Shown here: positions 1-59,129 of the stretch, piece after piece
How positions within the stretch are numbered: the stretch's first letter is position 1
How the letters are laid out: the number at the start of each line of letters is the position of its first letter
Source of the DNA: an archaeon
Lineage (GTDB): Archaea > Nanobdellota > Nanobdellia > Woesearchaeales > UBA9642
Direction: 5' to 3'
Length of the DNA: 64,000 bases
NCBI GenBank assembly: GCA_043806035.1
Contig: JAZDHK010000005.1
Coordinates: forward strand, 2,136 to 66,135
The notes under the pieces: model-generated
Database searches by the model: none
What the model was told of the DNA's origin: nothing
The model's input: only the letters and a program-made list of their open reading frames with translations
Position numbers and translations under genes: made by a program

Positions 1-230
1 CGTATGCAGGTATCCTGCGCTTATTGTCGTGTACGCTGCGGTGTCGTTGATGAGCGTTGGCAGTGTGAGATTTCCTCCATCCGTGCCATTGCCTAATTGG
101 CCATACGAATTGTCTCCCCAGCACAATACTCTGCTGTCGTTTGTTCGAATGGCGCACGTGTGTCTTTCTCCCGACGTGAGAGTGTCTGGCCTGACGAGCA
201 TGCCGGTAATGTTTGCTGCGCCATCAATGT
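1..230 (-). repeat. RCC1-like beta-propeller block 4 (partial, first blades only; continues beyond the window)
   Basis: The translation ends ...GERHTCAIRTNDSRVLCWGDNSYGQLGNGTDGGN...AAYTTISAGY at nt 1. Confidence 0.6.
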
Positions 231-15200: not shown

Positions 15201-17964
15201 TGTACCATGTATAGTTGTAGATAACTTTTGGTTCTTCAGACGAGTTCGTCGTGCCGTTGCAGTAGCCGTAGAGGTCGTCGGTGTCGTTCGCTGTTGAATT
15301 GGGGTTGATCCTGCTCGTGCTCATGTTCGCTTGCGATGCATCATTGAACGCATATGCCGTCTCGTTCCCGAACGTGAATTGTTGTACGTGCTTGCCCGCA
15401 GTGTGCACCTTCACTGTCCACGTTGCCGTTTCATTGCACGAATAGTCCTCGTACAGGTACGAGATGTGTTCGCTTCTGTTCGAGAAATCAGCGACGGGCA
15501 TCGTTTCTGTTTCCGTGACGTAGTAGGAATGCTCGGTGCGGTTCTCTGCCTTGCTGAACAGCGTCGCGTTGCCGCATGCGAGTGAGAGTATTTCGAGATC
15601 GTCTTCCGTTTCAGGATTATCATTGCCCTCCTCCAGATACGTGGTGCCGTTGATAGCTGCAATGCTCAAGTTACCCTCTCCTGACGTGTTGATGCTGACC
15701 TGCCACAGCCCTCCCACATACGGGTAGCTCTGCACGTTGAGGATGGTAATGCTAACTTCGTACGTCTGGTTGCTCAGCGAAGGAGTAATCCATGAGATGT
15801 AGTCAATCAACCCGTTGTTGTTCTCATCATAATACGAAACGCCCTCCACCTTTACTCGGGTATTGTTCACGAGCCAGTAGAGCGTGATGCTCTCCCGTCT
15901 CACATCTGGAATTGCCGTGTACGTGAAGATGTCCGTGTAGTGCACGTCTGAAGAAACCACGACTTGTTTCCTTCCTTGCACGAATGCTGTTTCCGTGCTT
16001 GTTGGCCCTTCCGTGTAGTATTCTACCTGGATGTGCTGGGCCTCTTCGTGAACGGTAATAGTTATGCTGTCGCTTGTATCCACTCGTGTTTCCTGTTCGG
16101 GAACGGAGAAGTCAGCAATCACATTGCCCGTGATGAGACCGTCCTCTGCAGATTCGGCAGGCGGAGCGCCTTCTCTCGTTATTTTCTCTTCAGGAATTTC
16201 TACTACTGTATTGTTGGTGATCTCTTTCGCAGAGAGATTGTATGCGAGCACAGGGATGGTGGTGGTGAAGTTCTGCACTATCTCCTCTGCCCGTATGTCT
16301 TCCACCCAGCGTACTGGTTTGTTGATGATGACCATTCTCGTGAGGTTGCGCAGGAAACTCGGCAGCGTCGCATTCGTTCTGTTCTGCGTGATGTTAATCA
16401 GGAAAACGTTGCTCTTCACGAGCGATTCGCCGTCAGTAGCATAGATGAACGTTGCATACTCCCCCTCCCGTCCAGAGAATGAGATAGATTCTCCGTGTAC
16501 CTCGACAGTGAGGTCTGTGCTCTTGGTGCTGAACACTAGCGGATCATGATCGGGGTCGAGGAAGTGCGTGCTGGCGTTGATGGTCAGTGTTTCATTCTCC
16601 TCGAGCGTGTAGTTGCCGACTTGTGCGATTTGCTCTGGCTCTCTGTTTCCTGCCGTGTAGGTGATGCTGTCGATGGTGATGCTGCCCTCTACCTCGATGT
16701 ACAGGAGTGCCTTGTCCAACATCAGACTGCATGCCTGGCCGCACACATTGTCAAAGGAGAACGGCACGAGTTCTGAAACATTGGTTGCATTGCTTACGTT
16801 CGTGCTCAGGTTCTGCTCAAGCTGGGTGATATTCTCTACGAGGGTTTCGTTCTTGATGAGCGTCTCATTCTCAACTTCGCTGCCAATCGTCACGTTTTCA
16901 GGCACGGTCTCGTTCAGCGTTGCGTTTGCGTCTGTGGTCTCATTCGGGATCAGTGTGGTGTTCTCCGTGATAGCTGTGGTGTTCTCTGGGATGATGGTTG
17001 CATTCTCTGCAGTTGCATTCACCAATTCATTCGCTGTTTCATTCATGCTTTCGTTCAACGTTGCATTCAAGGGATGCTCTTGCGTCTCATTCTGTGTCTC
17101 GTCAATGATGGGCTGGCTGATGTTTTCTTCAGTGAGGTTTTCTGCTAGCTCAAGGGGAGTCTCTGGCATGTCCTGCTCGGAAGATGGTTCTGTGCTGTTT
17201 TCGGAAACGTTGTCAGAGACGATTTCTTCAACAATCATTTCATCTGTGTGTGTGTCAAAAGAAGTATTGAGAGCAGTGTCTGCTGGTGTTTCTTGAAGTG
17301 GTGTTTCGGGAATTTGCTCTGCTGGTGTGCTTTCTTCCTGGACTGGCGGTTGCGTTGTTTCCTCGATGACGTCTTGAGGGACAGGTTCTGGTGCAGTGGC
17401 GGTTGTTATTTCTTCCGGCGGCAGTTCTTGCTCAGGAGGCGTTTCTTCAATGACTCTTCCCGTCAGTAAGTTCTGCTCGTTCTTCTGTTCTGTCGTGAAG
17501 AGCAACATGCGCTCTCCATCGGTGAGCAAGTAAATGCGTGCAGTGCCCTGGCCGTGTCCGGTGATGTGTAGTCCGCTGACGTTCGTGAGTCCAGTGTCAT
17601 ACGCAGTGTTCTCAGTGAATGTCTTGTTGATGAACAAGATTTTTTCTTGCGCAAACGTGAGCTTGCCGGTGATGCCCGCATAGTTGATCATGCCGACGAG
17701 GAGCAGGCCGAAGAGCAGGACGGTTATGGCAAGAAGCGGTGTGTGCCTGCTTTCAGTTCTTGGCTGACGCTTGAGATGCCTGATCTCTTCTTCTACTTCC
17801 TTGTAGTATTGTGTCTCTGGTTTGCCGTTGAAGAGCTTGTCGATGTGCTCTTGATAGTCCTGATAGGATATCTTTCGTTCATTGAGCAACTTGTTGAGTT
17901 TGCTCTGTACATGCAAGGTCTTTTCCTTTAGCTGTTCAAGCTTTCGTGCTCTACTTGCGTGCAT
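1..17964 (-). CDS. Giant membrane-anchored cell-surface or adhesin-like protein, partial (at least 5988 aa in window; the 3' end lies beyond the window start). Domain order: N-terminal ~75-aa charged/coiled segment, one TM helix, acidic NxS/T-rich linker, four 7-bladed RCC1-like beta-propellers, at least five LamG/ConA-like lectin domains, two parallel beta-helix (PbH1) regions, and recurring Ig-like 'SPANQTNTT..CNITDD..WNS' and 'SAFFDWNN' modules.
   Basis: Manual reverse-strand translation from ATG (plus-strand 'cat') at 17962-17964 gives MHASRARKLEQLKEK...HTPLLAITVLLFGLLLVGMINYAGI (TM). It continues in one frame with no stop down to nt 1. The ORF track lists no minus-strand ORF of at least 60 aa beginning near 17964, which is expected because the track appears to list only ORFs that end in a stop inside the window. 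Repeats such as HTCGIRANDSRVLCWGDNxxGQLGDG (RCC1 blades) and DExRIxxRxLSxxEInASYNnG (LamG C-terminus) are plainly readable. The plus-strand 'MAIRIVSPAQYSAVV...' ORFs are their antisense shadows. An in-frame TAG sits 22 codons upstream of the ATG. Confidence 0.85.
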   Translation of the reverse strand, partial: MHASRARKLEQLKEKTLHVQSKLNKLLNERKISYQDYQEHIDKLFNGKPETQYYKEVEEEIRHLKRQPRTESRHTPLLAITVLLFGLLLVGMINYAGITGKLTFAQEKILFINKTFTENTAYDTGLTNVSGLHITGHGQGTARIYLLTDGERMLLFTTEQKNEQNLLTGRVIEETPPEQELPPEEITTATAPEPVPQDVIEETTQPPVQEESTPAEQIPETPLQETPADTALNTSFDTHTDEMIVEEIVSDNVSENSTEPSSEQDMPETPLELAENLTEENISQPIIDETQNETQEHPLNATLNESMNETANELVNATAENATIIPENTTAITENTTLIPNETTDANATLNETVPENVTIGSEVENETLIKNETLVENITQLEQNLSTNVSNATNVSELVPFSFDNVCGQACSLMLDKALLYIEVEGSITIDSITYTAGNREPEQIAQVGNYTLEENETLTINASTHFLDPDHDPLVFSTKSTDLTVEVHGESISFSGREGEYATFIYATDGESLVKSNVFLINITQNRTNATLPSFLRNLTRMVIINKPVRWVEDIRAEEIVQNFTTTIPVLAYNLSAKEITNNTVVEIPEEKITREGAPPAESAEDGLITGNVIADFSVPEQETRVDTSDSITITVHEEAQHIQVEYYTEGPTSTETAFVQGRKQVVVSSDVHYTDIFTYTAIPDVRRESITLYWLVNNTRVKVEGVSYYDENNNGLIDYISWITPSLSNQTYEVSITILNVQSYPYVGGLWQVSINTSGEGNLSIAAINGTTYLEEGNDNPETEDDLEILSLACGNATLFSKAENRTEHSYYVTETETMPVADFSNRSEHISYLYEDYSCNETATWTVKVHTAGKHVQQFTFGNETAYAFNDASQANMSTSRINPNSTANDTDDLYGYCNGTTNSSEEPKVIYNYTWYRNDVLNTSGRLFKANTITTGGVHTCGIRANDSYILCWGDNTYGQLGNGSTGGNSHNPIPINDTSAYLMVSASNVHTCAIRANDSRVLCWGDNQRGQLGDGTTTDKLNPTLINDTAAYTQVGVGGWPSAPNTWGTTCGIRANDSRVLCWGSNTYGQLGDGTEDTDRINPTLINTTSSFSSISVGGDSTCGIRANDSRVLCWGLNGNGQLGDGSTTQKNNPTLINDTSAYSMITIESFSNGIGVTCGIRANDSRVLCWGDNSMGQVGIGSATGNEPNPKQTTDTAAYSWITVSITDACGIRANDSRVLCWGIDYVGEGGHGDATERDSPVLIDDTASYVIVDAGGDNSAAFNSFSTCGVLLNGTAKCWGGNYYYELGDGTNTQRNSPVYVNSTSSYMPGFPSGQEVFVSMQHNRHTTNGDSWILSCQAQDGFSNSTWLNSSATTIGPPYNPPNITWEYPTPENGATTTNDWAYLNATVNASLNTSAFFDWNNTLGAYWNFEYYNTSGILDNSSNNYFATFGAGLSTSNISTGRYGKGLNFSTGATLSAAGANGTFITAPLTVEIWFKYDVLPNETGTASYIFGKWHSETPWYSWLIYGLASDNKTNVAFRNSTSTMSGVISDASATVGTWYHYVFTLNESYNVSVYINGDKQTATAGMTDLYPSNSSVKIGSSGYPFKGIVDEARIHQRVLSWQEINASYNNGLFRLENNFTQLDNGTYSYTAWATDENGNMTKSTQTITIDGAPPTVTLVSPANQTRTITADNTFTCNITDNAGIANVTLYVWNSTGDNVAADISEWCYQESANTLTSCGGLATGAYALTGMWTDGGNLNDGNYESYGTYLPDEEEPGYMYVNYSKPARAQSTSLWQVKDNEATMNLSLPQLCWDQTSLQLRAESDQHNTDTYWQCWNSTDWQTLRSYLSSARIWEEGMWWNISRTTVSVGGTSNSTNWTVTLPYEGSFTWNCEGNDSVGNSNWGQNYSIAYYALPNITWEDPTPEVGENITTAWAYLNATITSLLNTSAFFDWNRSLVAYYSFEYYNDTHVFDNSTYGYNATFTNMTPSPIGEGKFGQGVTFTGGNASYLNVSSNENLLEDYTEMTICLWFKRADDGLGTTQVLLRDRHGDNDNFTQLIWQESNSLIFGCKRAGTEYSVGLSDSILLADTWYYGCGTYNSTSMRVYVNGQLNDSLANGNCSLSRTNPNWVTIGSGSYCCGFNGSIDELKIWNRTLSWQEINASYNSGLYQLKNNFTDVTLGIASRTYNYTAWAIDQNGSTVKDARQSSTTACTSPSGNETLSQATNCADSNLAVDALTISSDAALNLTNTNLTVNVLNITGNLTLQNSTLRVNGTTSVANGAIFISRDGGSTLWFNDNLTINGTVIWDNETIRMNGTENGSANIIVQDAGNLSTNLSNITNGDVAEAKYEISADQTARLSIINTSIENVGWNLATGMTIAAQNFTYINSSAYQTTPAYPFQINLTTYNRIMPSNLVYYGRNDTLFLCTGCTLYVSNWTLLAGSIVKSASTPAGNGSINVANLNYTYSSSTLTYFTSINDNTVGANISGSNATPSKGDWGSINSTTTYHFEWMQVSYASGRPYLDGPTAGMIIYDNIFKENDGYINFNTITEFKKNLIINCTDGLKGKQINYEAFIVASNTFDGILGVAIEEIGSANYPQNSITNNLFLNTNTSISFNDSEVLDTYVHDYNAHYNVACRYYNQTEDNCTNQTYSNEINLTDNPLVAANGNSHYLNQSSPIINAGSYYGGSPLASSGYGTNPDGMSGDLSPLDIGYHYYGYRIPPYITVNSPANDATVSSVNLNISVNGTLPSTVRFFGSMNASQLDTSVLRYNLSITNTTSIYPWTSAPIAADDNTVLLVHFDNLSEYGENDTFARDYSGNDNNATCDSCPVMDITGGKFGGAYNFSGEEYVEVPYSSSLALSNYTVAAWVNVDNDGDNNCVLSTRIGATDELFNFKIMKSSIQGSIGNGSDWLKETAACSRSADVGTWVQIVYVVHDGGYEIYVNGLRCDSGEFEGVPLLIAATNNLTIGECLDGSEFMSGSIDDVAVWDRNLSAEEVYYLYTMRNGAYYWMATANDSQLQNATGTYNFTLNASPNIVVSLDSPADASTNVKFTGDAASPFSCTAATAYSTVNDITLYAGTVGWQNVSYQSVSGFSANTTADFSNNINPVGLLMDKALSLGCYATNNASQSNWSTNKTVSGFSLGNFSQGTTLNGIANITIDDTRQAAINNGQTTFLQYFDYGPGDDFRANSGEVANYDGFSASLTYESMNGTAFLGCSNLCELRYPDSKNMDYGTVTFWFRKSYSGTGAFTLLQIYGSSIYHLTLSDINPSIMYAANVTLRHFKTVQTITANSGIASSGWHMYAVVWNKSLSDGEITLYRDGSKLVNSSGDLFPGADIGTLSVNISIGANMSLVNDAAGYYDEIAIYDAAYSSSVISQLYTNQSHTRFGNYSSQVFDIGSNASVWYTLSAATNDVGNITFQARNCDDAACNGENFTGPSGSNSTYYTDLTGQELNASTSRYFQYKAFFGREITSSSQPELYAVNITYLANDSVNCTPLSYGFNVLSTCSFSDQALIINGSLDIGSTGYLNLSNVTLIVNGNTRVRNGGTFKTVNGGSTIWQNGNLTINGTYILNRETLRMNGSSDGTYGITVQGSGTFNVSNSSNITNGETSTADYAFVVQSGATFNVQDSLISRAGYSDTTGSKGLEISAANAILARCNLSYIKSGIHLLGGSANLTGNNISMTTESYTGTMYGIDVTGGSATIQNNYISTDLNQTTHLLEVASNSNTFRNNTLAGVNSTILAFIPSRQHNTFDDMTGIITNNVAGTCIYSSAATNNTFTNFSFTDCNASRMLYLTGSGNYNLTLINPIGYNTSNITFSSAGATKLYVKWFADLFVGKLSGTAVSGATVLAYDNSYALFMNTTTDASGLITGQSFYEYSQNSTQVYPDNVTYFTNYSFIASRAGYATTHNKTWNLTQSQIGTGRINLSIVGCGDTITTDTNFTGNLSNDTGLGCPAGGITVTSGAAVDCNNYWIYGGDQGTGTGILADGASSLTNCNVYGFNRSVIVHDFGTTISGGTFKGGTTNQTRGLSFDGDVGALTVQHVTITNSSEYGVYLEGVPSQDYTFNNITIENNSGTGVYYDDSTGYVIGITINNSRIRYNYNGIVLKLADENYMSYVVQSNITNNTFNIVYPLSSTNDQNLTFLNNNVFGGTYDWIMSGTTKDQNATSNWWGTTNENTIAAQILDYSDSPVVGRVIYCPYLTSAYPGASLSTDDASQCTCDETVGSTACNGASCYILNSTSFSWDIMSQSDGTYNSNCCGDDSTEFYAQASSSGLPGFTNTTSACCNITNSCVFDRSCYENDTIPLDVDENSNLDYCLEGTWHDCFNDSQCDEGYFCSNNDCISYPEMNGSRINPTPTADTLLNLFGYCNASHTANLKVLYNYTWYNNTIIYQNALFKAETISAGRMHTCGIRANDSRVLCWGDNANGQIGDGDAPNDKLNPTLTADDSAYSTISSGDYHTCGIRANDSRVLCWGDNDNGQLGNGNTTNMWTPTPINDTTPYISIYGGRVHTCAIRNDSRVLCWGQNNVGQAGDGTTDTPKTNPTLINDSGAYMSVSAGYIHSCGIRANDSRVLCWGHNTNGQLGDGTQTQRENPTPINDTAGYRLVSTGGGDFGRHTCGIRANDSRVLCWGNNTEGALGDGTTTQRLNPTLINDTSAYTDVNAGWQHTCGIRANDSMALCWGKNDNGAVGDGSQTDRLNPALINDTATYRYITAGAHYSCGVRANDGQALCWGYNNWGQLGIGDTTQKLNPTTITDASSYFPGFPAGKEVLVGVIGSAFTETGENWTLSCSASDQNSQVTSWLNSSSTLITEDIAPVVHLVSPANQTNTTNDSYALACNITDDYQVKALTVYVWNSSGTLQTNVTTLAGVSNSTSWSYAFPHPDVFTWNCLGNDSFDNTAWSSEGNYTINYTPITVISVRISPALFANHTDNLLGYCNATHPTGGKVMYNYTWYNDSTAFMNGVVFKAGTLSAGTYHTCGIRANDSQVLCWGSNLWGMLGNGSDGGTSPNPIPINDSANYTAISAGYTHTCGIRANDSQVLCWGYNPYGALGDGTDTQHKNPWPINDTAYSLVGAGNYHTCGIRANDSKALCWGRNNYGMLGNGNTTNMYNPTLINDTAAYITITAAIEYTCGIRTNDSRVLCWGRNGNGQLGDGTQTNHYNPAPINDSAAYLSVSAGEYHACGILINGSVKCWGANSDGATGNGSTGGNALNPQLINDSAAYLTVSAGYGHTCAVRANDSQIMCWGSNGYGRLGNGSSGGTNPNPAPINDSAAYLSVSARAYRSCGIRTNDSQVLCWGVNDYGQLGNGNTTSMYNPTPINNTASFYPGWPSAQELLVSTLGNAFTSLGENWTLSCMATNTTLTSRWLNSSVTHILDQVAPTLAIQKNSSILEAGSESIYINWSATDGTGISDVVFNITYPDGSLLFSSSTAVSNVTLTFLNLTQLGQYNLTLWANDTSNNSNTANTSFSVNHTLPPVITWENPTPPDNELTTATYAYLNTTITDYSNTSAFFDWNNTLGAYWNFDAVNDTTVYDNSTGQKNLTNSTGSGFSFSAGKFGNSLWFSNGGEATNVTYDVAIANYTPYVTVPFTLEFWIYWNITPNASAEQAYPIMLMNSPSSWTWLIYGVTATNVTAFGVKNSSNDATYTNAGVCPAQTWCHIAFTINASGTLKGYRDGNLITTTTLPGAMIYNQTTNLRLGSYWSGGGGFNGSLDELRIYARELSWEEINASYNNTEFTLYHNFTNLEYGNQTYTAYAIDTAGHLSTSTRSVSILNLTLKVQLVSPANQTNTTQPTHAFMCNITDDTDSSALTLSIWNSTNDLITTNATAVGGIINSTNWTFTLPYADTYTWNCLGNDSDSNEEWSDEGNYTLTYIKPTMISASIIPTPSANNSDTLYGYCNATDPFEEKLVYNYTWYIDGAANITGMLVRPDTLTSGERHTCAIRTNDSRVLCWGDNSYGQLGNGTDGGNLTLPTLINDTAAYTTISAGYLHT
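2000..3075 (-). repeat. RCC1-like beta-propeller block 3 (7 blades)
   Basis: The run TCGIRANDSQVLCWGSN ... SCGIRTNDSQVLCWGVNDYGQLGNG was read directly. Coordinates are approximate. Confidence 0.7.
3700..4790 (-). repeat. RCC1-like beta-propeller block 2 (7 blades)
   Basis: The run HTCGIRANDSRVLCWGDNANGQIGDG ... SCGVRANDGQALCWGYNNWGQLGIG was read directly. The plus-strand shadow 'MAIIIVSPAEYSAVV' (4540..4725) is its antisense. Coordinates are approximate. Confidence 0.7.
14020..15190 (-). repeat. RCC1-like beta-propeller block 1 (7 blades: CGIRANDSRVLCWGxN...GQLGDG)
   Basis: Seven consecutive repeats of about 50 aa read in the translation. Plus-strand shadows include 14357..14746 and 14927..15214. 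Coordinates are approximate to about 50 nt. Confidence 0.7.
16810..17470 (-). repeat. Low-complexity acidic E/T/P/N-rich linker, dense in N-glycosylation sequons (NET/NAT/NES/NVS...)
   Basis: The translation reads EETPPEQELPPEEITTATAPEPVPQDV...NATLNESMNETANELVNATAENATIIPENTTAITENTTLIPNETTDANATLNETVPENVT. It is a stalk-like region between the TM anchor and the first globular domains. Confidence 0.6.
17670..17739 (-). other. Predicted single transmembrane helix (LLAITVLLFGLLLVGMINYAGI) anchoring the giant protein, N-terminus in the cytoplasm
   Basis: A hydrophobic stretch of about 23 residues follows a K/R/E-rich N-terminus. Everything downstream is NxS/T-rich and therefore predicted to be extracellular. 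Confidence 0.6.
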
Positions 17965-18187
17965 GTTCCCTCTTTCTTCTGGAACGTTGATAGACTGTCC
18001 AGATGGTCCGTTCGTTTCTGTTGAGGAGAATGGCTATTTCCTTGTACGTGTAGCCTCGCTTGTCCTTGAGAAATTCGACTATTGCCTCAAGCACTTTGAG
18101 GGTTCGGTCCTGGAAGATGTAGGAGGGGAAATTGACGTAGTCCGGGAGTTCTTTTTTTCGCTGTTCGTTACTGTCTTTTGTCGTCAC
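17951..18187 (-). CDS. Small HTH DNA-binding protein (LuxR/GerE- or sigma-70 region-4-like helix-turn-helix), 78 aa. Its last 14 nt overlap the start codon of the giant gene.
   Basis: ORF track protein MTTKDSNEQRKKELP...LKVLEAIVEFLKDKRGYTYKEIAILLNRNERTIWTVYQRSRRKREHARK. Its TAG stop at 17951-53 lies out of frame inside the first codons of the giant ORF (ATG 17964). A TATA-like box sits at 18231-18238 upstream. Confidence 0.6.
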   Translation of the reverse strand: MTTKDSNEQRKKELPDYVNFPSYIFQDRTLKVLEAIVEFLKDKRGYTYKEIAILLNRNERTIWTVYQRSRRKREHARK

Positions 18188-18474: not shown

Positions 18475-18589
18475 GCCTCCGTAGCTTAACGGTGGAGCGT
18501 GCGGCTGTTATCCTTGCTGCGTTTGCACAAAAAAAAACACGGCAGGGCAAGTGACCGCAAGGTCACCGGTTCGAACCCGGTCGGAGGCG
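18475..18589 (+). tRNA. tRNA-Asn (anticodon GTT) containing an intron of about 43 nt at the canonical 37/38 position. The intron includes a 9-A run.
   Basis: Hand-folded cloverleaf. Acceptor GCCTCCG/CGGAGGC, D-arm GCT-TAACGGTGG-AGC, anticodon stem TGCGG/CCGCA with loop CTGTTAT, T-arm ACCGG-TTCGAAC-CCGGT, discriminator G. The antisense ORF 18356..18550 is a shadow. Confidence 0.7.
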
Positions 18590-18603: not shown

Positions 18604-18707
18604 GAGCCCGTAGCTTAGCCTGGTGGAGCATCCGACTGATAAAAACGGCCGGTAAACTGGTCGATTGTCGTTTCGGAAGGTCGCGAGTTCAAATCTCGCC
18701 GGGCTCA
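18604..18707 (+). tRNA. tRNA-Ile (anticodon GAT) containing an intron of about 30 nt
   Basis: Acceptor GAGCCCG/CGGGCTC plus A, anticodon stem TCCGA/TCGGA with loop CTGATAA, T-arm GCGAG-TTCAAAT-CTCGC. The antisense ORF 18508..18708 begins 'MSPARFELATF', the classic tRNA antisense translation. Confidence 0.7.
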
Positions 18708-18741: not shown

Positions 18742-20475
18742 ATGGACAAGCTAGCAATTCTTGATATGGGTGGACAATATTGTCACCTCTTGGCAAGACG
18801 CATCAGGGACTTAGGGGTGTATGCGGAAATCCTGCCAGCAACGACACCTGCAACACAACTCAAACAGTATGCGGGAATCATTCTTTCAGGAGGCCCAGCG
18901 AGCGTCTACGAACACAACGCTCCAAACGTTGATCCTGCACTGTTCTTTCTTTCCCCACCCATCCTTGGCTTGTGCTACGGCCACCAACTCATGGCACATA
19001 GTCTGCACGGCAATGTGCAGCGAGGGAAAACAAAAGAATACGGCACGGCACGACTCACCGTCAAAAAATCAAAACTCTTTGCAGGACTTGCAGCTCAGGA
19101 AACGGTATGGATGAGCCACGGCGACACCATAACCGAATTGCCACCAGGCTTCCGCGTCATCGGCAGCACTCCAGACTGCCCAATAGCCGCCATGGAGCAC
19201 AACAATCACTACGGCCTGCAATTCCATCCGGAAGTGACACACACACCAGCAGGAAAGAAGATGCTCAATAATTTTTTGGACATCTGCAACGCAAGAAGAG
19301 ACTGGAATCCAGAACACTATCTTGATGACATCATCTCGGCAATCAAAACACGTGCATCCGCGGAAACAACAGGCACCATGAAAAAAATCCTGCTCTTCCT
19401 CTCCGGAGGAGTCGATTCCATGGTGTGCCTCGCCCTCCTGCAAAAAGCCATACCTGGACACTATACTGCAGTGCACGTCGATACGGGATTCATGCGCCTC
19501 GGCGAGAGCAAGGACGTACAGGACATGGTTGCGCAGATGGGAGCACACGTGAATATTGTTAACGCACATGACATCTTTTTTGAGGCGACACGCGACGTCT
19601 ACGACCCTGAGCTGAAACGGCAACGCATCGGTGATGCATTCCTGACTGTTTTTGATCAGACTCTTTCAGATCCTGCAAAGCAGGACTGGCTCCTCTGCCA
19701 GGGCACCATCTATCCCGACACCATCGAGACAGGAGGAACGCAACGTGCAGCAAAGATCAAAACACATCATAATCGCGTTGGCAGAATCCATGCACTGATT
19801 GTGCAAGGAAAACTTATTGAGCCATTAGCCAACTTGTACAAGGACGAAGTTCGTTTGCTAGGCAAGAAACTGGGCATGCCGGACAACATACTGCAGCGGC
19901 ATCCTTTTCCCGGGCCAGGGCTGGCCGTGCGCTGCCTCTGTTCAGATGAGGACTACACCACTCGTGTGCATGACGTTCTGCCACTGCGTTCGGTCGGCGT
20001 GCAAGGTGACGACAGAACGTACAAGAAACCGTACTTGTTGCGAACACTCGATTGGACACAGGCCAACGAGCAGTCGACGATGATCACGAACAGCAGAACT
20101 GACGTGAATCGTGTTGTTGCCTTGCTCTATCCTGACGACATTCGTGACGTGCACGTCAAGCGAGCATCGATAACCAAAACGCGCATAACACTCCTGCAGC
20201 AGGCCGACGCGCTTGTCAGAGAAAAGCTCGACACGGCAGGACTCTATACTCAAGTATGGCAGTTCCCTGTCATCCTCGCACCACTCTCGCTGCAGGGAGG
20301 GGAAACCATCATCCTGCGTCCTGTTCTCTCGACAGAAGCGATGACGGCAAGTGTCGCCCAACTTCCCGCATCCTTTCTCACCGGCCTCGTCAGCGGCTTA
20401 GCGAGCATTCAGGGCATTGACTGTGTCCTATACGACATAACCAGCAAGCCTCCGGGAACGATAGAGTGGGAATAA
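18742..20475 (+). CDS. guaA: GMP synthase (glutamine-hydrolysing), single fused polypeptide (GATase plus ATP-pyrophosphatase, PP-loop SGGVDS)
   Basis: N-terminal class-I GATase motifs (GLCYGHQL, catalytic Cys). Mid-protein LLFLSGGVDSMV PP-loop. C-terminal GMP-synthase dimerisation region. 577 aa. Confidence 0.9.
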   Translation: MDKLAILDMGGQYCHLLARRIRDLGVYAEILPATTPATQLKQYAGIILSGGPASVYEHNAPNVDPALFFLSPPILGLCYGHQLMAHSLHGNVQRGKTKEYGTARLTVKKSKLFAGLAAQETVWMSHGDTITELPPGFRVIGSTPDCPIAAMEHNNHYGLQFHPEVTHTPAGKKMLNNFLDICNARRDWNPEHYLDDIISAIKTRASAETTGTMKKILLFLSGGVDSMVCLALLQKAIPGHYTAVHVDTGFMRLGESKDVQDMVAQMGAHVNIVNAHDIFFEATRDVYDPELKRQRIGDAFLTVFDQTLSDPAKQDWLLCQGTIYPDTIETGGTQRAAKIKTHHNRVGRIHALIVQGKLIEPLANLYKDEVRLLGKKLGMPDNILQRHPFPGPGLAVRCLCSDEDYTTRVHDVLPLRSVGVQGDDRTYKKPYLLRTLDWTQANEQSTMITNSRTDVNRVVALLYPDDIRDVHVKRASITKTRITLLQQADALVREKLDTAGLYTQVWQFPVILAPLSLQGGETIILRPVLSTEAMTASVAQLPASFLTGLVSGLASIQGIDCVLYDITSKPPGTIEWE

Positions 20476-21176
20476 GCTCCAGTCGTTTACACAGCACACT
20501 ATTGCAGAAGCGAGTAGAAAAGCTTAAAAACAAGGATGGAACAGGTGCATGCATGAAGGCAGTTCTTTTTGATCTCGACGGCGTCATCATCAACAGCCCA
20601 AAAGCGCACTATGCCGCATGGAAGAAAGCATTCAAGGAATTTGCTGTCGACATCAAGCCGGACGACCTTTTTCTCATTGAGGGCATGACAAAGGACGAGA
20701 TTGCCAAACGGCTCTGCAAGCAATCTGACCTCCCTGTGCTCGAAGCTGCGAAGGTCATCCAAAAAAAAGACCAGCATTTTGAAAAGAGCAAGATATCGCT
20801 TTATCCAGGCATGCTTGAACTCATACTCCTGTTGAGAAAAAAAGGGGCGAAGTTGGCCATCGTCACGGCGAGCAGCCATGCAAGCATCGGCGGCGTGCTG
20901 ACGGATGCATTCCTCAAAAAATTCGATGCCGTCGTCTTCGGCAGCAAGCAAGGCAAGGATAATCCCTACGCGCAAGCGGCAAAGCAGATAGGCGTTCCTG
21001 CAGAGCACTGTGTCGTCGTCGAGAATGCACCCATCGGCGTGCAGGCGGCGAAGGCAGCAGGCATGTACTGCATTGCCATCACCACGACACTGAAAGAGAA
21101 CCAGCTCTCGCAAGCGGACAAAGCAGTCAAAGATGTTGCAGCCCTTGCTGAACTTTTGAAAGTACTCATTGCATAA
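20466..21176 (+). CDS. HAD-superfamily hydrolase (beta-phosphoglucomutase/phosphatase-like)
   Basis: VLFDLDGVIINS motif I (DxDG), a conserved Lys and a C-terminal DD-like motif. 236 aa. The start overlaps the guaA stop. Confidence 0.8.
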   Translation: MGISSSRLHSTLLQKRVEKLKNKDGTGACMKAVLFDLDGVIINSPKAHYAAWKKAFKEFAVDIKPDDLFLIEGMTKDEIAKRLCKQSDLPVLEAAKVIQKKDQHFEKSKISLYPGMLELILLLRKKGAKLAIVTASSHASIGGVLTDAFLKKFDAVVFGSKQGKDNPYAQAAKQIGVPAEHCVVVENAPIGVQAAKAAGMYCIAITTTLKENQLSQADKAVKDVAALAELLKVLIA

Positions 21177-21226
21177 CTGGACAAGGCACAACAACCCATA
21201 TAAACAACCAGTTCTTCTCGGCAATC

Positions 21227-24200
21227 ATGTCAAGAACGCTCGCCATTCCCGAGGTCATGGGCGATGCAGCGATCAATATAGCCTTCGATACGATTGCCAG
21301 GGAGAAGCAGGCATTGTTCTTTCTCAATTCCAAACGAAATGCAGAGAGTCTCGCAGAGCGCATCGCAGCCAAGATAAAGGAAGCGCAGCCGAACAATGAC
21401 GTGCTTGCCAAAAAAGCATTGCACCTACCCAAACCGACAAAACAGTGCCAACGCTTGGCCCTCGTCCTGAAAAAGGGAATGGCCTTCCACCACGCAGGCC
21501 TGACGAGCCAGCAAAGAGAACTCATAGAGCAAGGTTTTAGGGAAGGAAACATTAAAATCATTTGTGCGACGCCAACTTTGTGCTTGCATAAAGATGCACT
21601 CATATGGCAAGGTTTGACGGAAAAAAAAGTCTGTGAAATCAAAAAAGGCAACATGGTTTATGCATTAAAAGAAAAAGCTGTAATAAAAGTGCCTGTTTCT
21701 GCAATTCACAAAAACACAGCAACAGGATACCTTACCATCACATCTGTCTCAGGGCATTCGGTGACTGTTACACCCAATCATCGTGTGCTCATAAAGAGAA
21801 ATGGCGAGGTAAAATTAATTCAGGTAAGAGACTGTAAAAAAACAGATTATATCGCAACGCTAGGACTTTTGAGCGTATCTTCCAAAAATGTGCGTCTCTC
21901 TAGATTAGTCAGGGATAATCAACTCCCTTTTTCTGATAAACTGCTGGATCCGAATGATTATTATCTCATCGGAAGTATGTTGGGAGATGGATACTCAGGA
22001 GCAGAATATAGAGGGAAAAAGATAATCTATAAAGGTTCACCATGTATTGTGGGTAACGACCAAGAAATATTTGCCAGGATAAAGGACAAGTGTGCGCAAT
22101 ATGATTTGTTGTGCAAAGCGGATAAGAACTATCACGGGACGAACCAACTCATACTCAGTAAGAAGAAATGGTTCAGAGAATTTCTTTGCCGTGCGGGTAT
22201 ACAAATCCGAGAACAAAAGCACATATGTGTATCTCTCCTCGGAGCGCCTGAATCTTGTGTTCGTGCTCTGCTTCAGGGATTGTTCGATACAGATGGCTAT
22301 GTGCAGCAATACCGCAATGTGGGATTTTCAAACATATCCTGTGTGCTCGTTCGTCAAATGCAGAGACTATTATTACGATGGGGCATAGTAACCAGATTCA
22401 GGCAAAGAAAACCGGGCAAAATGAAAATGTACGGTAAAGAGTATTTAACAAAAATCGGCTACGAGTTAACGATAGTACATAAACTCAGCATCCTTAAATT
22501 CAATGAGTGTGTTGGCTTTTCCGTTGAAAGAAAGAAAAAATCCTTACAAGTAATCGTTGCGAACATAATGGACAACATTCATTACGCACACTGTCCAATT
22601 TGCAAGTATAGAATATACGCTGATCTTTTTACGGGAAGAACTAAAGAACAACAACTTTGGGGAAAACAAAAACACACAATTCTCTCATTCCTTGGGCGAT
22701 ATGGAGAGTTAGCGTCTAATGAGATCATTAAACGTTTGGGAATAGAACCGAGAAAAAAAGACAGACGTCTTAATCATCATTATCAACTCATTACAAAAAG
22801 AAAGAAGGGAGTCATAAGCAAGACAGAATGGTACTGGTCACTAAATGCCATTGGCTCGTATCTTTATAAGCATGACCTGTTCAATAATCTCACTTTGTTT
22901 TTTAAGAGAACGCACTGTCCCCTCTGCGGTACTGAACTTATGATGCGACTAAAATCAGGTTGGAGAACGAAAGACATAGATGGAGACATTTTTTGGGACA
23001 AAATACATTCCCTAGAACCCACCTTTGTTAAGGAAGAATCATATGATGTTGTTCTGTCTACAGACAGGAGTAATGATCACTTGTTTGTAGCGAACGGCAT
23101 ATTTGTTCATAATTCGGCAGGCGTTGACCTTCCTGCTTTTCGCGCGGTCATCCGTGACGTGCAACGGTACGGCAAGCACGGCATGCAGCACATTCCCGTC
23201 CTGGAGTATGAGCAGATGGCGGGCAGGGCGGGCAGGCCGGGCAAGGACGACCACGGTGAGGCAATTCTCATCGCAGCATCCGAGAAGGATAAGCAGCTCC
23301 TCAAGGAAGCATACGTTGATGGGGAAACAGAATCCATTTACAGCAAGCTTGCGGTAGAGCCTATCCTGAGGACGTACTGCCTCAGTCTTATTGCGACGAA
23401 CTACGTCAAGGACGAGAACGAACTAAAGACATTCTTTGCGAAGACGTTCTACGCACACCAGTATGGCGACCTTAAAAAATTGGCAAAATTGCTCGACAAG
23501 ACCATCGCGCGACTGCAGGAATGGCAGTTCTTGCACAACAGCAAGGATGATTTTGTGGGTGCAGACCAGTTGCTCAGAAAAGAGACTGCGCTTGCGGCAA
23601 CCCTGTTCGGCAAGAGGACATCAGAGCTCTATCTTGACCCGTATACGGCACGGTTCTTGCTGGACTGCATACTCACCACGAGAAAGAGAACGCCGAGCGT
23701 CTTTTCCTACCTGCATGTCCTGTGCTCCTGCTTGGAAATGCGGCCGCTGCTCAGAGTGAAAGTTGCTGACATGGACACGCTGCAGGCAAAAATAACCCTG
23801 CACAGCGAGGAGCTCTTAGTGAAAGAACCCTCGTATTATGACGAGGAGTACGATGCCTTCCTACAGTCATGCAAGACGGCGCTGTTTTTCATGGACTGGA
23901 TTAATGAAATGAATGAGGATGATTTGTTGAACACGTATGATGTCCGTCCTGGTGAGATTCGCGCAAAACTCGACATTGCAGACTGGCTACTCTACGCGAT
24001 GGAAGAATTGGCACGCATCAGCAAGAACCTCGGTGTCATCGCAGATGTGCGAAAGCTCAGAGTGCGGTTGAAGCACGGCGCTAGGGAGGAATTGCTACCC
24101 CTACTCAAATTGAAGGGCATAGGCAGGGTGCGGGCGAGACTGCTCTTCAAGAACGGCGTCAAGGACATTGGCGGCGTAAAAGAGGCGAGCACGACGACGC

Positions 24201-24322
24201 TTGGCCAGTTGCTCGGCAAGGCCATTGCAGAGGACATCAAGAAGCAAGTTGGTGAGGACATCCCCGAAGAAGTGAGCCCTCGCAAGCGCAAAGGCCAGAT
24301 GTCGATGGACAAGTACGAATGA
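21227..24322 (+). CDS. hel308: Hel308/Hjm (Ski2-like) DNA helicase, C-terminal fragment only (RecA2 domain onward plus winged-helix, ratchet and HhH domains), interrupted by a 511-aa intein. No RecA1 (Walker A/DEAH) domain is encoded.
   Basis: The ORF begins ...ALFFLNSKRNAESLAERIA (start of helicase domain 2). Motifs HHAGL and IICATPTL|C...VHN|SAGVDLPA follow, then MAGRAGRPG (motif VI). The C-terminal ...LLKLKGIGRVRARLLFKNG is the HhH domain. An in-frame TGA at 21149-51 precludes any N-terminal extension. Confidence 0.85.
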   Translation: MSRTLAIPEVMGDAAINIAFDTIAREKQALFFLNSKRNAESLAERIAAKIKEAQPNNDVLAKKALHLPKPTKQCQRLALVLKKGMAFHHAGLTSQQRELIEQGFREGNIKIICATPTLCLHKDALIWQGLTEKKVCEIKKGNMVYALKEKAVIKVPVSAIHKNTATGYLTITSVSGHSVTVTPNHRVLIKRNGEVKLIQVRDCKKTDYIATLGLLSVSSKNVRLSRLVRDNQLPFSDKLLDPNDYYLIGSMLGDGYSGAEYRGKKIIYKGSPCIVGNDQEIFARIKDKCAQYDLLCKADKNYHGTNQLILSKKKWFREFLCRAGIQIREQKHICVSLLGAPESCVRALLQGLFDTDGYVQQYRNVGFSNISCVLVRQMQRLLLRWGIVTRFRQRKPGKMKMYGKEYLTKIGYELTIVHKLSILKFNECVGFSVERKKKSLQVIVANIMDNIHYAHCPICKYRIYADLFTGRTKEQQLWGKQKHTILSFLGRYGELASNEIIKRLGIEPRKKDRRLNHHYQLITKRKKGVISKTEWYWSLNAIGSYLYKHDLFNNLTLFFKRTHCPLCGTELMMRLKSGWRTKDIDGDIFWDKIHSLEPTFVKEESYDVVLSTDRSNDHLFVANGIFVHNSAGVDLPAFRAVIRDVQRYGKHGMQHIPVLEYEQMAGRAGRPGKDDHGEAILIAASEKDKQLLKEAYVDGETESIYSKLAVEPILRTYCLSLIATNYVKDENELKTFFAKTFYAHQYGDLKKLAKLLDKTIARLQEWQFLHNSKDDFVGADQLLRKETALAATLFGKRTSELYLDPYTARFLLDCILTTRKRTPSVFSYLHVLCSCLEMRPLLRVKVADMDTLQAKITLHSEELLVKEPSYYDEEYDAFLQSCKTALFFMDWINEMNEDDLLNTYDVRPGEIRAKLDIADWLLYAMEELARISKNLGVIADVRKLRVRLKHGAREELLPLLKLKGIGRVRARLLFKNGVKDIGGVKEASTTTLGQLLGKAIAEDIKKQVGEDIPEEVSPRKRKGQMSMDKYE
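21581..23113 (+). mobile_element. Intein (511 aa) with a LAGLIDADG homing-endonuclease domain and CxxC/CxxC zinc-ribbon-like insertions, inserted in helicase motif V (ATPTL^AAGV-type site)
   Basis: The intein's first residue is Cys after ATPTL. Its last residues are HN, followed by Ser (+1). LAGLIDADG motifs are LIGSMLGDGYSG and LLQGLFDTDGYV. HCPICKY...HCPLCG Cys pairs are also present. Frame arithmetic: 21581-21227=354 and 23114-21227=1887, both multiples of 3. Confidence 0.8.
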
Positions 24323-24364: not shown

Positions 24365-24565
24365 ATGAGCTTGGTCGGTATATTGCGAGAGTACGCTATC
24401 ATTCCTGGAACGTACGAGCAGGGAACGAGGAAGCCAGGCCTGTTCTTGAACAAACTCTATGGACTGAGGGACTCGTTCAGGAATAGCGTGTACGGACAGC
24501 AGGCAGAGTATTACTTCTTGAAGATACAAGAAACGTGGAATTCCTTACGACCGAACAACCCATAA
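24365..24565 (+). CDS. Small hypothetical protein (66 aa), possibly a leaderless transcript
   Basis: ORF track only. A TATA-like box (gatttaaatattt) lies about 25 bp upstream. The 3' end overlaps the convergent nmd3-like gene. No recognisable domain. Confidence 0.25.
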   Translation: MSLVGILREYAIIPGTYEQGTRKPGLFLNKLYGLRDSFRNSVYGQQAEYYFLKIQETWNSLRPNNP

Positions 24566-25486
24566 TCCGCCGTGAAGGATGACCTGCACGGTATGGCCGA
24601 GGACGCACTCTTTCTTGTCTGCATGCACGATAGGCTCGCTCTGAAATGTCAAGGGGTGCATGGCCTCGAGGTGTGGACGAATTTTTGTTATGGTCGTTGT
24701 ATAGACGGCCAGTATTGTTGGTGTATGAGGGATGCGGATGCTCGTGCTTGATCCCGACTGCACATTCTTCACTTTGAAACTCTTGCCCGTATTGATGACC
24801 TCGAAGGGAAGGTGGTTGTGCAGGAAAAACGTCCCTTTTTTCAATGCGGGAAAGTTGAGGATGATGTTGAGCCTGAAAATGTCTCTGCTCGATTGTGTAT
24901 TTCTGGAAAAGAGTTGTGCGTGTCTCTCGTACGTTCCTCCGAACGCAGCGCGAAGATGCTTTGCCAGGGCATCAATGGCCTTTCGCGGGCTGAGATAGAG
25001 GTCGATGCCGTTCTGTACGTGCACTTCTTTGGCGAGATGCGCACGTTCTCTCTTCAGCATGGCTTTTGCCCTGCCGATGATGTGCTCATCTGCATTGCGT
25101 AGTTGCAGTACCCCCTCATAGTACGTTCCTGTCTTCATATCTGGGCTGTTCCTGCCCCAAAACTTCGCAGGGATATCTGCGTACTGGTTGCCGATCTTCA
25201 CCGTCAGCAAGATAGGGAAGAGCTGACCGTCCTTCACCTCAGTTAGTGTAGGCGTGGTATTTACGAGCGTGATGCGCTGTTTGGTCTTGATTGCTTGCTG
25301 TGCAGTTTTCTCGATAGCCTCAGTGACATCCTTGCAGGACTTCCAGGAATTTCCCACAAGGTATTTCATCGAGGGACTCACGGTGATGGTGATATCTTTG
25401 TACGTGAATTCTCGAGAGGGTGCACAGTCTGCACAGAACGTCTCCTTGCGTGTCGTTTCTTTTCCGCAGCGTGGGCAGAAGCGCAT
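24545..25486 (-). CDS. NMD3-family protein (archaeal Nmd3-like, N-terminal C4 zinc ribbon)
   Basis: MRFCPRCGKET...FCADC N-terminal Cys cluster followed by an NMD3-like body, 313 aa. A TATA-like box (tttaaa, 25511-16) lies about 27 bp upstream. Confidence 0.5.
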   Translation of the reverse strand: MRFCPRCGKETTRKETFCADCAPSREFTYKDITITVSPSMKYLVGNSWKSCKDVTEAIEKTAQQAIKTKQRITLVNTTPTLTEVKDGQLFPILLTVKIGNQYADIPAKFWGRNSPDMKTGTYYEGVLQLRNADEHIIGRAKAMLKRERAHLAKEVHVQNGIDLYLSPRKAIDALAKHLRAAFGGTYERHAQLFSRNTQSSRDIFRLNIILNFPALKKGTFFLHNHLPFEVINTGKSFKVKNVQSGSSTSIRIPHTPTILAVYTTTITKIRPHLEAMHPLTFQSEPIVHADKKECVLGHTVQVILHGGLWVVRS

Positions 25487-26758: not shown

Positions 26759-27386
26759 GTCTTCGCTGGTCCTCGAGAATGAGCTGATGAATGGTAGGAA
26801 TGTCCTGTGTGCCATCGATGACCATGGCGCTCTCGGGGAAAAGTGCAGGCAATGCATCGTATGCATCAATGACTTTGCGCGTGAATACAGGATCTGATTC
26901 GAGCCTATCGAGCGATTTTCCCGACTGCCGTAAGCGTTCCTCAACGACGGTGTAGGGAATTCTAAAGAGATAACCACGCAAGGGCGTAATACAGTCCGCA
27001 AAGCTGGACAGCCAAAGAATGTCCTCGATAGGCACACCGCGTGCGTGCTGGTAGGCGAGTGTTGACCAATAGGATCTATCCTGGACAACTACCTGCCCCT
27101 TCTCAAGCAAAGGTTTCAATTGTAGGTTTGTAATCGCCCGTGACGCAGTATAGAGCAATGTTTCGCATTGTGGTGTGATGTCTGTATTCTCTTTATCGAG
27201 TAGAATCGTCCGTATCTTCTCTGCGGACAGCGACCCGCCTGGCTCGCGCCATCGCTCATAGGCTATACCTTGTTGTTTGTATACTTCGAGAAGAAGATTG
27301 AACTGTTTTGATTTTCCACAACCATCGACCCCTTCGAAAAAAATGAGCGCTCCTGTCATCCCTGCTGAAGGAGTATTGTAGTGCAT
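26742..27386 (-). CDS. tmk: Thymidylate kinase
   Basis: IFFEGVDGCGKS P-loop, REPGG motif and DR lid. 214 aa. Confidence 0.9.
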   Translation of the reverse strand: MHYNTPSAGMTGALIFFEGVDGCGKSKQFNLLLEVYKQQGIAYERWREPGGSLSAEKIRTILLDKENTDITPQCETLLYTASRAITNLQLKPLLEKGQVVVQDRSYWSTLAYQHARGVPIEDILWLSSFADCITPLRGYLFRIPYTVVEERLRQSGKSLDRLESDPVFTRKVIDAYDALPALFPESAMVIDGTQDIPTIHQLILEDQRRLKILR

Positions 27387-27896
27387 TTAAACATTTCTCT
27401 CCTCTGGGCTACAACACCTTGTCACGATGTCTTGAACGATGGTCTGTACTGGTTGTGTGGCATCTATGTTCTTTCCATATTCGAAGCGGTTCACGAGCAT
27501 GTGCACTGCCCTTGCCGCATCTTCCCCATAGCCGTTCTTGCGCGCCGTATCACGCGCTATGCAGGCATCCACTGGAGCAGTGAGAGTGAAGACATACCCT
27601 GGAACAGGCATCTCTCCTATGAGTTCATCTATGTTCTCCTTATGATAAAAGCAACCGTCGATGACTACCGGCTTTGTCTTGAGTGCCGTTCGTATGTGCG
27701 GCAACATGATTGCTTGTGCTTTGCGGAACTGCTCTGCAGGGATGCACGGCTCATCTTTAGGGACGAGATCAAGCTTGTGCTCGACCATAACCGCATCAAG
27801 TGCTATGTACGCTGCATGGAGTTGCTTCGCGACCGCTTGTGCTATTGTCGTTTTGCCAACGCCCAAAGGACCGCGGATGAGGACATAGTAGCTCAT
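27387..27896 (-). CDS. P-loop kinase (AAA_33/chloramphenicol-phosphotransferase-like NTP kinase)
   Basis: LIRGPLGVGKTTIA Walker A. 169 aa, no further family signature. Confidence 0.55.
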   Translation of the reverse strand: MSYYVLIRGPLGVGKTTIAQAVAKQLHAAYIALDAVMVEHKLDLVPKDEPCIPAEQFRKAQAIMLPHIRTALKTKPVVIDGCFYHKENIDELIGEMPVPGYVFTLTAPVDACIARDTARKNGYGEDAARAVHMLVNRFEYGKNIDATQPVQTIVQDIVTRCCSPEERNV

Positions 27897-27947
27897 GCAC
27901 TAAGGATCGCCTATACCTATATAAATCATGCTCTTCTTCCAGGCAGC

Positions 27948-59085: not shown

Positions 59086-59129
59086 GCTGTCGGGAAAGAA
59101 GGTGCTTATTTAAAGATTATGGCCGTATC

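Follow-up and report, generated by a model that had tools for sequence, protein, structure and literature searches.

Hel308/HELQ, a conserved helicase with a role in genome stability, has its ATP site between two RecA domains, RecA1 and RecA2. The locus described here raises the question of how such an enzyme could work when one of the two domains is missing from its gene. In a 64,000-nucleotide (nt) stretch of the woesearchaeal contig JAZDHK010000005.1 (metagenome-assembled genome, or MAG, GCA_043806035.1), called the window below and numbered from its first letter, one open reading frame (ORF) encodes Hel308 from RecA2 onward, without RecA1, and is itself interrupted by an intein. We consider it probable that this ORF is the C-terminal subunit (C-half) of a two-gene Hel308 (Hjm/HELQ type, Ski2-like, superfamily 2 [SF2]) that is found throughout the lineage and that, in this genome, carries a recently acquired intein.

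Could the missing domain simply lie upstream? The helicase frame is open from 21152 to 24319 on the forward strand and, as the first-pass annotation of the window had recognized, is barred from extending 5' by an in-frame TGA at 21149 to 21151. That annotation let coding begin at 21152; the earliest start codon of any type in the frame is the ATG at 21227, which gives a product of 1031 amino acids (aa) identical to GenBank MFH1173693.1 (“MAG: LAGLIDADG family homing endonuclease [archaeon]”; 71,448-bp contig). The preceding ORF had rightly been read as a HAD hydrolase, which its Pfam match confirms; its true start is probably the ATG at 20553 (MKAVLFDLDG), and it is unrelated to the helicase. 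A Walker A domain directly upstream of the stop, raised at the time as the observation that would undo the idea of a split gene, was not found: a six-frame motif scan of the 64-kb window (GK[TS] followed by DExH) detected no SF2 RecA1, and tblastn with Hel308 N-terminal sequences detected no RecA1. Within the 1031-aa product, Pfam identified Helicase_C, HTH_61, Helicase_dom4_arc (E = 2.4e-32), HHH_5, Intein_splicing, LAGLIDADG_3, and Hint and no DEAD or ResIII domain.

Once the intein is removed, the remaining protein, which we call the extein, is 520 aa long and colinear with residues 229 to 711 of Hjm (E = 3.7e-85, PDB) and residues 237 to 680 of Afu Hel308. Motifs IV, IVa (F/YHHAGL), V, and VI of RecA2 are all present and are followed by a winged helix (HTH_61), the ratchet domain 4 (Helicase_dom4_arc), and the helix-hairpin-helix (HhH) domain 5 (HHH_5), as matched by Pfam. 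The earlier view that the ORF lacks RecA1 and keeps the rest through the HhH domain therefore agrees with both Pfam and the alignment to Hjm. Its further claim that the ORF starts exactly at domain 2 does not hold. Domains 1 and 2 of PfuHjm comprise residues 1 to 197 and 198 to 399 (PMC2636818); Hjm residue 229 is the counterpart of extein residue 18, the ORF starts at about residue 212, and some 15 to 20 residues of RecA2 are absent. At the other end, the protein closes with a tail resembling a PCNA-interacting-peptide (PIP) box, at the position of the C-terminal PIP box reported for PCNA binding in PfuHjm (PMC2636818). In an alignment of 31 C-half sequences, the family consensus of this tail (KRKGQISLxDY) fits Qxx[LM]xxY, with the second aromatic residue absent. 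The AlphaFold model of the C-half had a predicted local distance difference test score (pLDDT) of 83.8.

The truncated gene is not peculiar to the window. At E <= 1e-10 the spliced extein is matched by 7652 proteins, of which the top-scoring 120 are all 496 to 572 aa long and 50 to 65% identical, have Helicase_C and Helicase_dom4_arc without DEAD/RecA1, and originate from Woesearchaeota/Nanoarchaeota MAGs and metagenomes. Species-representative genomes contain at least 568 confirmed relatives, and the best 80 of these loci are all in Woesearchaeota-type MAGs. Our sample of C-half loci was drawn from the window, from four metagenome or MAG places, and from species-representative genomes. An upstream in-frame stop combined with an ORF of 474 to 572 aa was seen in 82 of the 85 loci, and the intein-bearing 1031-aa frame of the window was the only longer ORF among them. 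The closest relative, P0001, is 65% identical, shares synteny with the window, and has no intein. The 31-member alignment shows no variation in motifs IV, IVa, V, and VI (Q..GRAGRP), even though identity to the window extein is only 51 to 64% for the other 30 sequences. The first-pass annotation had left room for two other explanations, a sequencing error behind the upstream stop and a pseudogene. The first, like any assembly error, is ruled out by the recurrence of the same architecture in 82 independent loci; the second, together with a frameshift, is ruled out because the helicase motifs have stayed invariant at such low overall identity. No relatives were found when viral contigs were scanned with profiles of the C-half and of the RecA1 family described next. 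The database names of C-half relatives are “helicase-related protein” or “hypothetical protein.” Many of the MAGs that contain them (L008, L015, L023, L031, and others) are titled “uncultured Methanosarcinales archaeon” (third-party annotation [TPA] “binchicken” assemblies), which is probably a wrong taxonomic label.

Where, then, is the ATPase half? With the N terminus of PfuHjm fused to the extein as bait, we retrieved unsplit DPANN Hel308 proteins (Aenigmarchaeota, Micrarchaeota, and other MAGs), which at 43 to 47% identity to the extein are its closest unsplit relatives. An exhaustive HMMER search with the first 226 residues of one such protein, P0128, then yielded short proteins that end just past RecA1. 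The stand-alone RecA1 ORF of about 200 aa that had been suggested as a search target has its counterpart in a conserved family of about 220 aa in the same lineage that ends where the C-half begins, and the prediction that the Walker A/DEAH half is encoded elsewhere is supported at the level of this family (N-half). At E <= 1e-10, one member, P0243, is matched by 4750 proteins. The top-scoring 120 are nearly all 211 to 228 aa long, consist of a DEAD domain alone, are 68 to 93% identical to P0243, come from “Candidatus Woesearchaeota” or Nanoarchaeota, and are named “DEAD/DEAH box helicase.” These are complete genes: one Tara record is flagged complete, with start and stop codons present, and at 82 metagenome loci the ORF is stop bounded with a modal length of 220 aa. 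Nearly all of the proteins at those loci end in (I/V)EF plus 0 to 2 residues before the stop (e.g., …IEFKK*). Motifs Q, I (PTASGKT), Ia, Ib, II (DEIH), and III (SAT) are all invariant in the N-half alignment. Identity to the reference of each family alignment is 67 to 87% for the N-half and 51 to 64% for the C-half. The AlphaFold model of the N-half (pLDDT, 84.5) matched domain 1 of Hjm best (template modeling [TM] score, 0.86; 45% identity), and across Hjm, Sso Hel308, and Afu Hel308 the TM scores were 0.77 to 0.86 at 42 to 48% identity. The N-half reaches approximately Hjm residue 217 and keeps the first β-hairpin of RecA2 (WRPVKL…IEF).

The two families fit together as the parts of one protein. 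Against NF002654, the NCBIfam Hel308-type model of 739 positions, the N-half P0442 matched positions 9 to 217 (283 bits), the window extein matched positions 224 to 711 (460 bits), and the unsplit P0128 matched positions 1 to 709 (753 bits). Summed, the scores of the two halves come close to the score of the unsplit protein; none of the three reaches the equivalog cutoff of 887 bits. The score against NF040935, 307 bits, is likewise below its cutoff of 1200. Alignment with P0128 and PfuHjm gave the same junction, with the N-halves stopping where the C-halves start, so that two complete, nonoverlapping ORFs tile the unsplit homologue. By these alignments the cut lies about 15 to 20 residues inside RecA2, since the N-half ends near Hjm residue 217 and extein residue 18 corresponds to Hjm residue 229.

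Both halves were found at separate loci of one genome, MAG GCA_016185945.1, where the N-half P0442 (MBI2653772.1) is on JACPMR010000010.1 (318,447 bp) and a C-half ORF with its upstream stop is on JACPMR010000015.1 (311,425 bp). A further N-half, P0466, is located in JACPMX, which is not among the C-half loci. The genes are unlinked in all of our samples: no N-half partner was detected within 10 kb of the C-half in 85 loci (1.2 Mb; regular expressions and tblastn), and no C-half was detected in the flanks of 82 N-half loci (0.7 Mb). The only match was a complete 647-aa Ski2/Mtr4-like helicase encoded about 3.5 kb from the C-half at L047 (15015 to 16958, minus strand), which was rejected as a partner. 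Its presence indicates that some Ski2-like helicases are unsplit in this lineage.

Each half also appears to have its own promoter. At 82 C-half loci, 108 TATA-like hexamers start at −30 to −26 from the ATG compared with 3 to 19 in the other 5-nt bins, and the corresponding numbers for 82 N-half loci are 93 and 3 to 37. This is the geometry expected of archaeal leaderless transcripts. The neighborhoods of the two genes differ. By tblastn, FtsY was found near the N-half in 49 of 84 loci and prefoldin in 32 of 84; where gene calls exist (L165 to L168 and L172 to L174), FtsY is convergent and downstream, followed by prefoldin and phosphoribosyl pyrophosphate synthetase on the opposite strand. The order of N-half neighbors is kept across distant genomes, and an H+-pyrophosphatase gene lies upstream in L165, L166, and L172 to L174. 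NMD3 is the recurrent C-half neighbor (16 of 84 loci by tblastn), convergent and downstream in the window, L001, L003, and L004. The unsplit genes of P0128 and P0146 have no neighbors in common with either half.

The interruption in motif V had been described as a large LAGLIDADG intein of 511 aa, and it is exactly 511 aa long. All of the catalytic residues for splicing are present (C1, TxxH, HN, and S+1), and both LAGLIDADG motifs have the conserved acidic residue. The insertion point had been given as the classical motif V site, ATPTL/AAGV; the site is correct and is the same in unsplit Hel308 proteins, but the junction actually reads ATPTL/C…HN/SAGV, with Ser rather than Ala as the +1 nucleophile. 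Excision would yield ATPTLSAGVDLPAF (ATPTL-SAGVDLPAF, an intact motif V), which is the consensus of the C-half family. The inteins of four unsplit Hel308 proteins (P0249, P0258, P0308, and P0347) occupy the identical site and are 43 to 44% identical over their full lengths, and those of the unsplit Thermococcales proteins P0184 and P0234 share the insertion site as well. The window intein thus belongs to an allelic family that is already known and is not unusual within it. It includes an extra module of about 100 aa bounded by two CxxC pairs that are conserved in the four closest relatives; Pfam zinc-ribbon matches to this module were subthreshold only, and a PDB sequence search gave one weak mini-intein match. 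The module may be a zinc-ribbon DNA-binding module. No other C-half among those examined (the best 120 and the loci) carries an intein. The GC content of the intein is 0.389 compared to 0.503 and 0.533 in the two exteins, and its GC content at third codon positions (GC3) is 0.376 compared to 0.585 and 0.684. This foreign composition, together with the intein-free, syntenic nearest relative P0001, suggests that the intein was acquired recently by homing, although composition by itself points to recent mobility only.

Taken together, a two-gene Hel308 appears to be the normal state across Woesearchaeota-type DPANN. One gene (about 220 aa) encodes RecA1 with motifs Q to III (motif II being DEIH) and the first β-hairpin of RecA2. 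The other, unlinked gene (about 520 aa) encodes what is left of RecA2, with motifs IV, IVa, V, and VI, together with the winged-helix, ratchet, and HhH domains and the PIP-like tail, and each gene has a putative promoter of its own. The two proteins would then associate after translation into a Hel308-like, ATP-driven motor, physically joined in trans and not spliced to each other, with the hairpin of the N-half probably completing the RecA2 sheet of the C-half and holding the subunits together. In the window, self-excision of the intein would have to restore ATPTL-SAGVDLP before the C-half subunit could work. Because the halves are in separate genes and the intein interrupts motif V, a working enzyme would need two genes and one protein-splicing step.

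Several points weigh against this reading. As a rule, the RecA domains of SF2 helicases bind each other only weakly once isolated, and a stable complex would therefore hinge on complementation by the predicted β-hairpin. In the N-half model, the C-terminal 25 residues that form this hairpin reach a pLDDT of only about 69 to 70, which fits a partner-dependent segment without proving one. The two halves have been seen together in a single MAG, and the N-half of the window's own MAG was not seen, there being none within the 64 kb. What the analysis shows directly is the anatomy of the gene, conservation across the family, the tiling of the halves and their co-occurrence in one MAG, the promoter signal, and the foreign composition of the intein; heterodimer formation, splicing, helicase activity, and an N-half in the MAG of the window are inferred.

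A more elaborate version of the two-gene Hel308, which we regard as unlikely, is that the split goes beyond an accident tolerated during genome reduction and makes a regulated, modular helicase. RecA1, by far the better conserved of the two subunits, would dock through its hairpin and be dosed separately or shared with other partners, and conditional splicing of the intein would act as a second switch. If true, nature would here assemble an SF2 motor in three steps, with the ATPase site existing only between two separately controlled polypeptides.

Alternatively, the C-half might need neither ATP nor a partner and serve as a DNA-binding, annealing, or PCNA-tethered factor, with the RecA1 protein an unrelated stand-alone ATPase. 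The C-half does retain the DNA-contacting domains 3 to 5 and the PIP-like tail, the halves are unlinked in differing neighborhoods, and a strand-annealing activity of Hel308 is reported to be modulated by motif IVa (PMC10484726). The N-half, however, keeps a hairpin of RecA2 for which a RecA1 domain on its own would have no use (PMC2636818), and every one of its ATPase motifs is invariant. Within the C-half family, motifs V and VI, including the QxxGRAGRP arginines, are invariant too. These motifs act at the ATP site that is formed with RecA1. The exact tiling of one Hel308 profile, with bit scores that sum to that of the unsplit protein, also speaks against unrelated proteins, and we think a solitary role for the C-half quite improbable.

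It is less probable still that the split family functions elsewhere and that the window gene is a decaying relic, following invasion by the intein or loss of its partner gene. In favor, no N-half was retrieved for this MAG, and no other member seen is as divergent as the extein (65% identity to its nearest relative and 50 to 56% to the rest). Decay would nevertheless have had to spare the frame, which is intact across 1031 codons, as well as the complete set of intein catalytic residues (C1, TxxH, HN, and S+1), the promoter-like TATA box at the family-typical position, and synteny with P0001. At every invariant column of the 31 sequences, including motifs IV, V, and VI, the window extein has the family residue.

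Split-intein joining of the Nanoarchaeum equitans DNA polymerase halves is a mechanism known in the Nanoarchaeota. That the Hel308 halves are joined in the same way, for which the split DNA polymerase I of N. equitans (PMC3655853) and the intein in the window ORF might be cited, or that the split is an assembly, frameshift, or start codon artifact, is hardly credible: the split ends lack intein fragments and have no room for them, since the N-halves end in …IEFKK* right after helicase sequence and only about 12 residues precede the first conserved helix of the C-halves; the sole intein is complete, acts in cis, and sits in motif V some 120 residues away from the split, so that the sequence data refute trans-splicing; and the split is seen in many assemblies, at 82 independent loci for each half, where stops and promoter-like boxes accompany it, with the halves on separate contigs of >300 kb in one MAG.

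Table 1. Positions of the C-half gene, its intein, and the adjoining features in the window
Feature	Position	Strand	Description
Upstream HAD-family hydrolase ORF	20466..21176	+	Pfam HAD_2, E = 5.3e-28, residues 33-205
In-frame TGA	21149..21151	+	5' limit of helicase frame; 21227-21149 = 78 nt = 26 codons
Putative promoter, TATA-like box ATATAAA	21198..21204	+	29-23 nt 5' of ATG 21227
Hel308 C-half precursor gene	21227..24322	+	1031 aa plus stop
N-extein, aa 1-118	21227..21580	+	Part of RecA2: motifs IV, IVa, and first half of V
Motif IV, QALFFLNSKR	21308-21337	+	N-extein
Motif IVa, AFHHAGL	21482-21502	+	N-extein
Motif V, first half, ATPTL	21566-21580	+	N-extein
Intein, 511 aa (Cys119-Asn629)	21581..23113	+	Cys1 in CLHKDAL; ends FVHN, then Ser630 (+1); Pfam Intein_splicing, Hint
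Intein block B with TPNH (aa 182-185)	21764-21787	+	
Homing-endonuclease core, two LAGLIDADG motifs	21965..22303	+	Pfam LAGLIDADG_3, E = 1.4e-14
LAGLIDADG motif 1, LIGSMLGDGY	21965-21994	+	
LAGLIDADG motif 2, LLQGLFDTDGYV	22268-22303	+	
Extra intein module, ~100 aa (intein aa 338-449)	22592..22927	+	Between CPIC (22592-22603) and CPLC (22916-22927)
C-extein, aa 630-1031	23114..24319	+	Remainder of motif V (SAGVDLPAF), motif VI, domains 3-5, tail
Motif VI, QMAGRAGRP	23213-23239	+	C-extein
PIP-like tail, KGQMSMDKYE	24290-24319	+	C terminus
NMD3-family gene	24545..25486	-	Convergent downstream; Pfam NMD3; conserved C-half neighbor

Other parts of the window were also inspected. On the minus strand, positions 1 to 18033 form one stop-free frame of at least 6011 codons that runs off the start of the window, and AT skew is −0.19 to −0.33 across most of the first 18 kb. 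In L001, the locus of the closest relative, the same position is taken by a giant gene whose product, at least 4544 aa long, matches Laminin_G_3, RCC1, and Pentaxin-like domains; the window frame is probably a giant DPANN surface protein. Two adjacent Rfam tRNA matches follow on the plus strand, at 18475 to 18589 (115 nt, 53.6 bits) and 18604 to 18707 (104 nt, 58 bits). ARAGORN reported neither, and their size suggests intron-containing archaeal tRNA genes. Glutamine amidotransferase, asparagine-synthase, and C-terminal Diphthami_syn_2 (diphthamide synthase) domains are combined in one protein at 27960 to 30032 (plus strand; ORF 27381 to 30035), a fusion that looks unusual. A DNA-repair cluster on the minus strand (56372 to 60614) encodes a Mre11-like phosphoesterase (56372 to 57625), HerA (57574 to 59085; DUF87), and a 494-aa protein with no Pfam match (59130 to 60614).

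How does this arrangement compare with known systems? In its motifs IV to VI, winged helix, ratchet, and HhH domain, the C-half is like the structurally characterized Hel308/Hjm proteins (PfuHjm 2ZJ2, Afu Hel308 2P6R, and Sso Hel308 2VA8). Characterized Hel308 proteins are single chains of about 700 to 720 aa with RecA1 in the same polypeptide; in the lineage of the window, by contrast, the chain is broken inside RecA2 and is encoded by unlinked genes, RecA1 being in the separate family of about 220 aa. A literature search found no description of a split Hel308 in DPANN/Woesearchaeota, coverage being incomplete and hence no proof of novelty, and the available parts of surveys of archaeal Ski2-like/Lhr helicases, of DPANN reviews, and of a fusion/fission survey do not mention one.

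The intein is likewise of a familiar type. Like the motif V inteins of the unsplit proteins P0184 and P0234, it sits at ATPTL/C…HN/S(A/M/F)G and combines Hint with LAGLIDADG; the “Mja helicase” intein of Methanocaldococcus jannaschii Hel308 is another example at motif V. It differs from the Thermococcales inteins in being only 25 to 28% identical to them, in patches, and from known motif V inteins in its host, a split C-half, the sole such case among the relatives examined. Unlike the split intein of N. equitans PolB, it contributes no fragment to either end of the split.

The nearest parallels to the split itself are the split proteins of N. equitans and Nst1, which include reverse gyrase, Lhr (NEQ003-409), RNA polymerase B, AlaRS, and others (PMC3655853, Table 1). 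There as here, a DPANN archaeon with a reduced genome divides the coding sequence of a single protein between two dispersed genes, the cut falls where reconstitution in trans is feasible (the SF2 helicase Lhr is also split in those archaea), and assembly after translation would be needed. The first-pass annotation had called the gene a Nanoarchaeum-type split. It is of the same kind, to judge by the dispersed halves in one MAG (JACPMR), but because Hel308 is not on the N. equitans/Nst1 list (PMC3655853), the split is analogous to those and not one of them. Scale also distinguishes them: the listed splits are from one or two hyperthermophile genomes, whereas the Hel308 split extends over a very large mesophilic radiation (82 loci and thousands of database clusters).

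Since its parts are named “helicase-related protein,” “DEAD/DEAH box helicase,” and “LAGLIDADG family homing endonuclease,” surveys that rely on annotation would overlook Hel308, and it may be scored as absent or partial in comparative genomics of Woesearchaeota. Hel308, split genes, and motif V inteins are each of already known kinds, and in that respect the surprise is moderate. Among the split genes of DPANN, the two-gene Hel308 would be a further case, widespread and apparently ancient, and relevant to the question of whether splits of this kind arose early or late. It would also make it possible to study, in a system provided by nature, how the domains of an SF2 motor come together and are coupled in trans.

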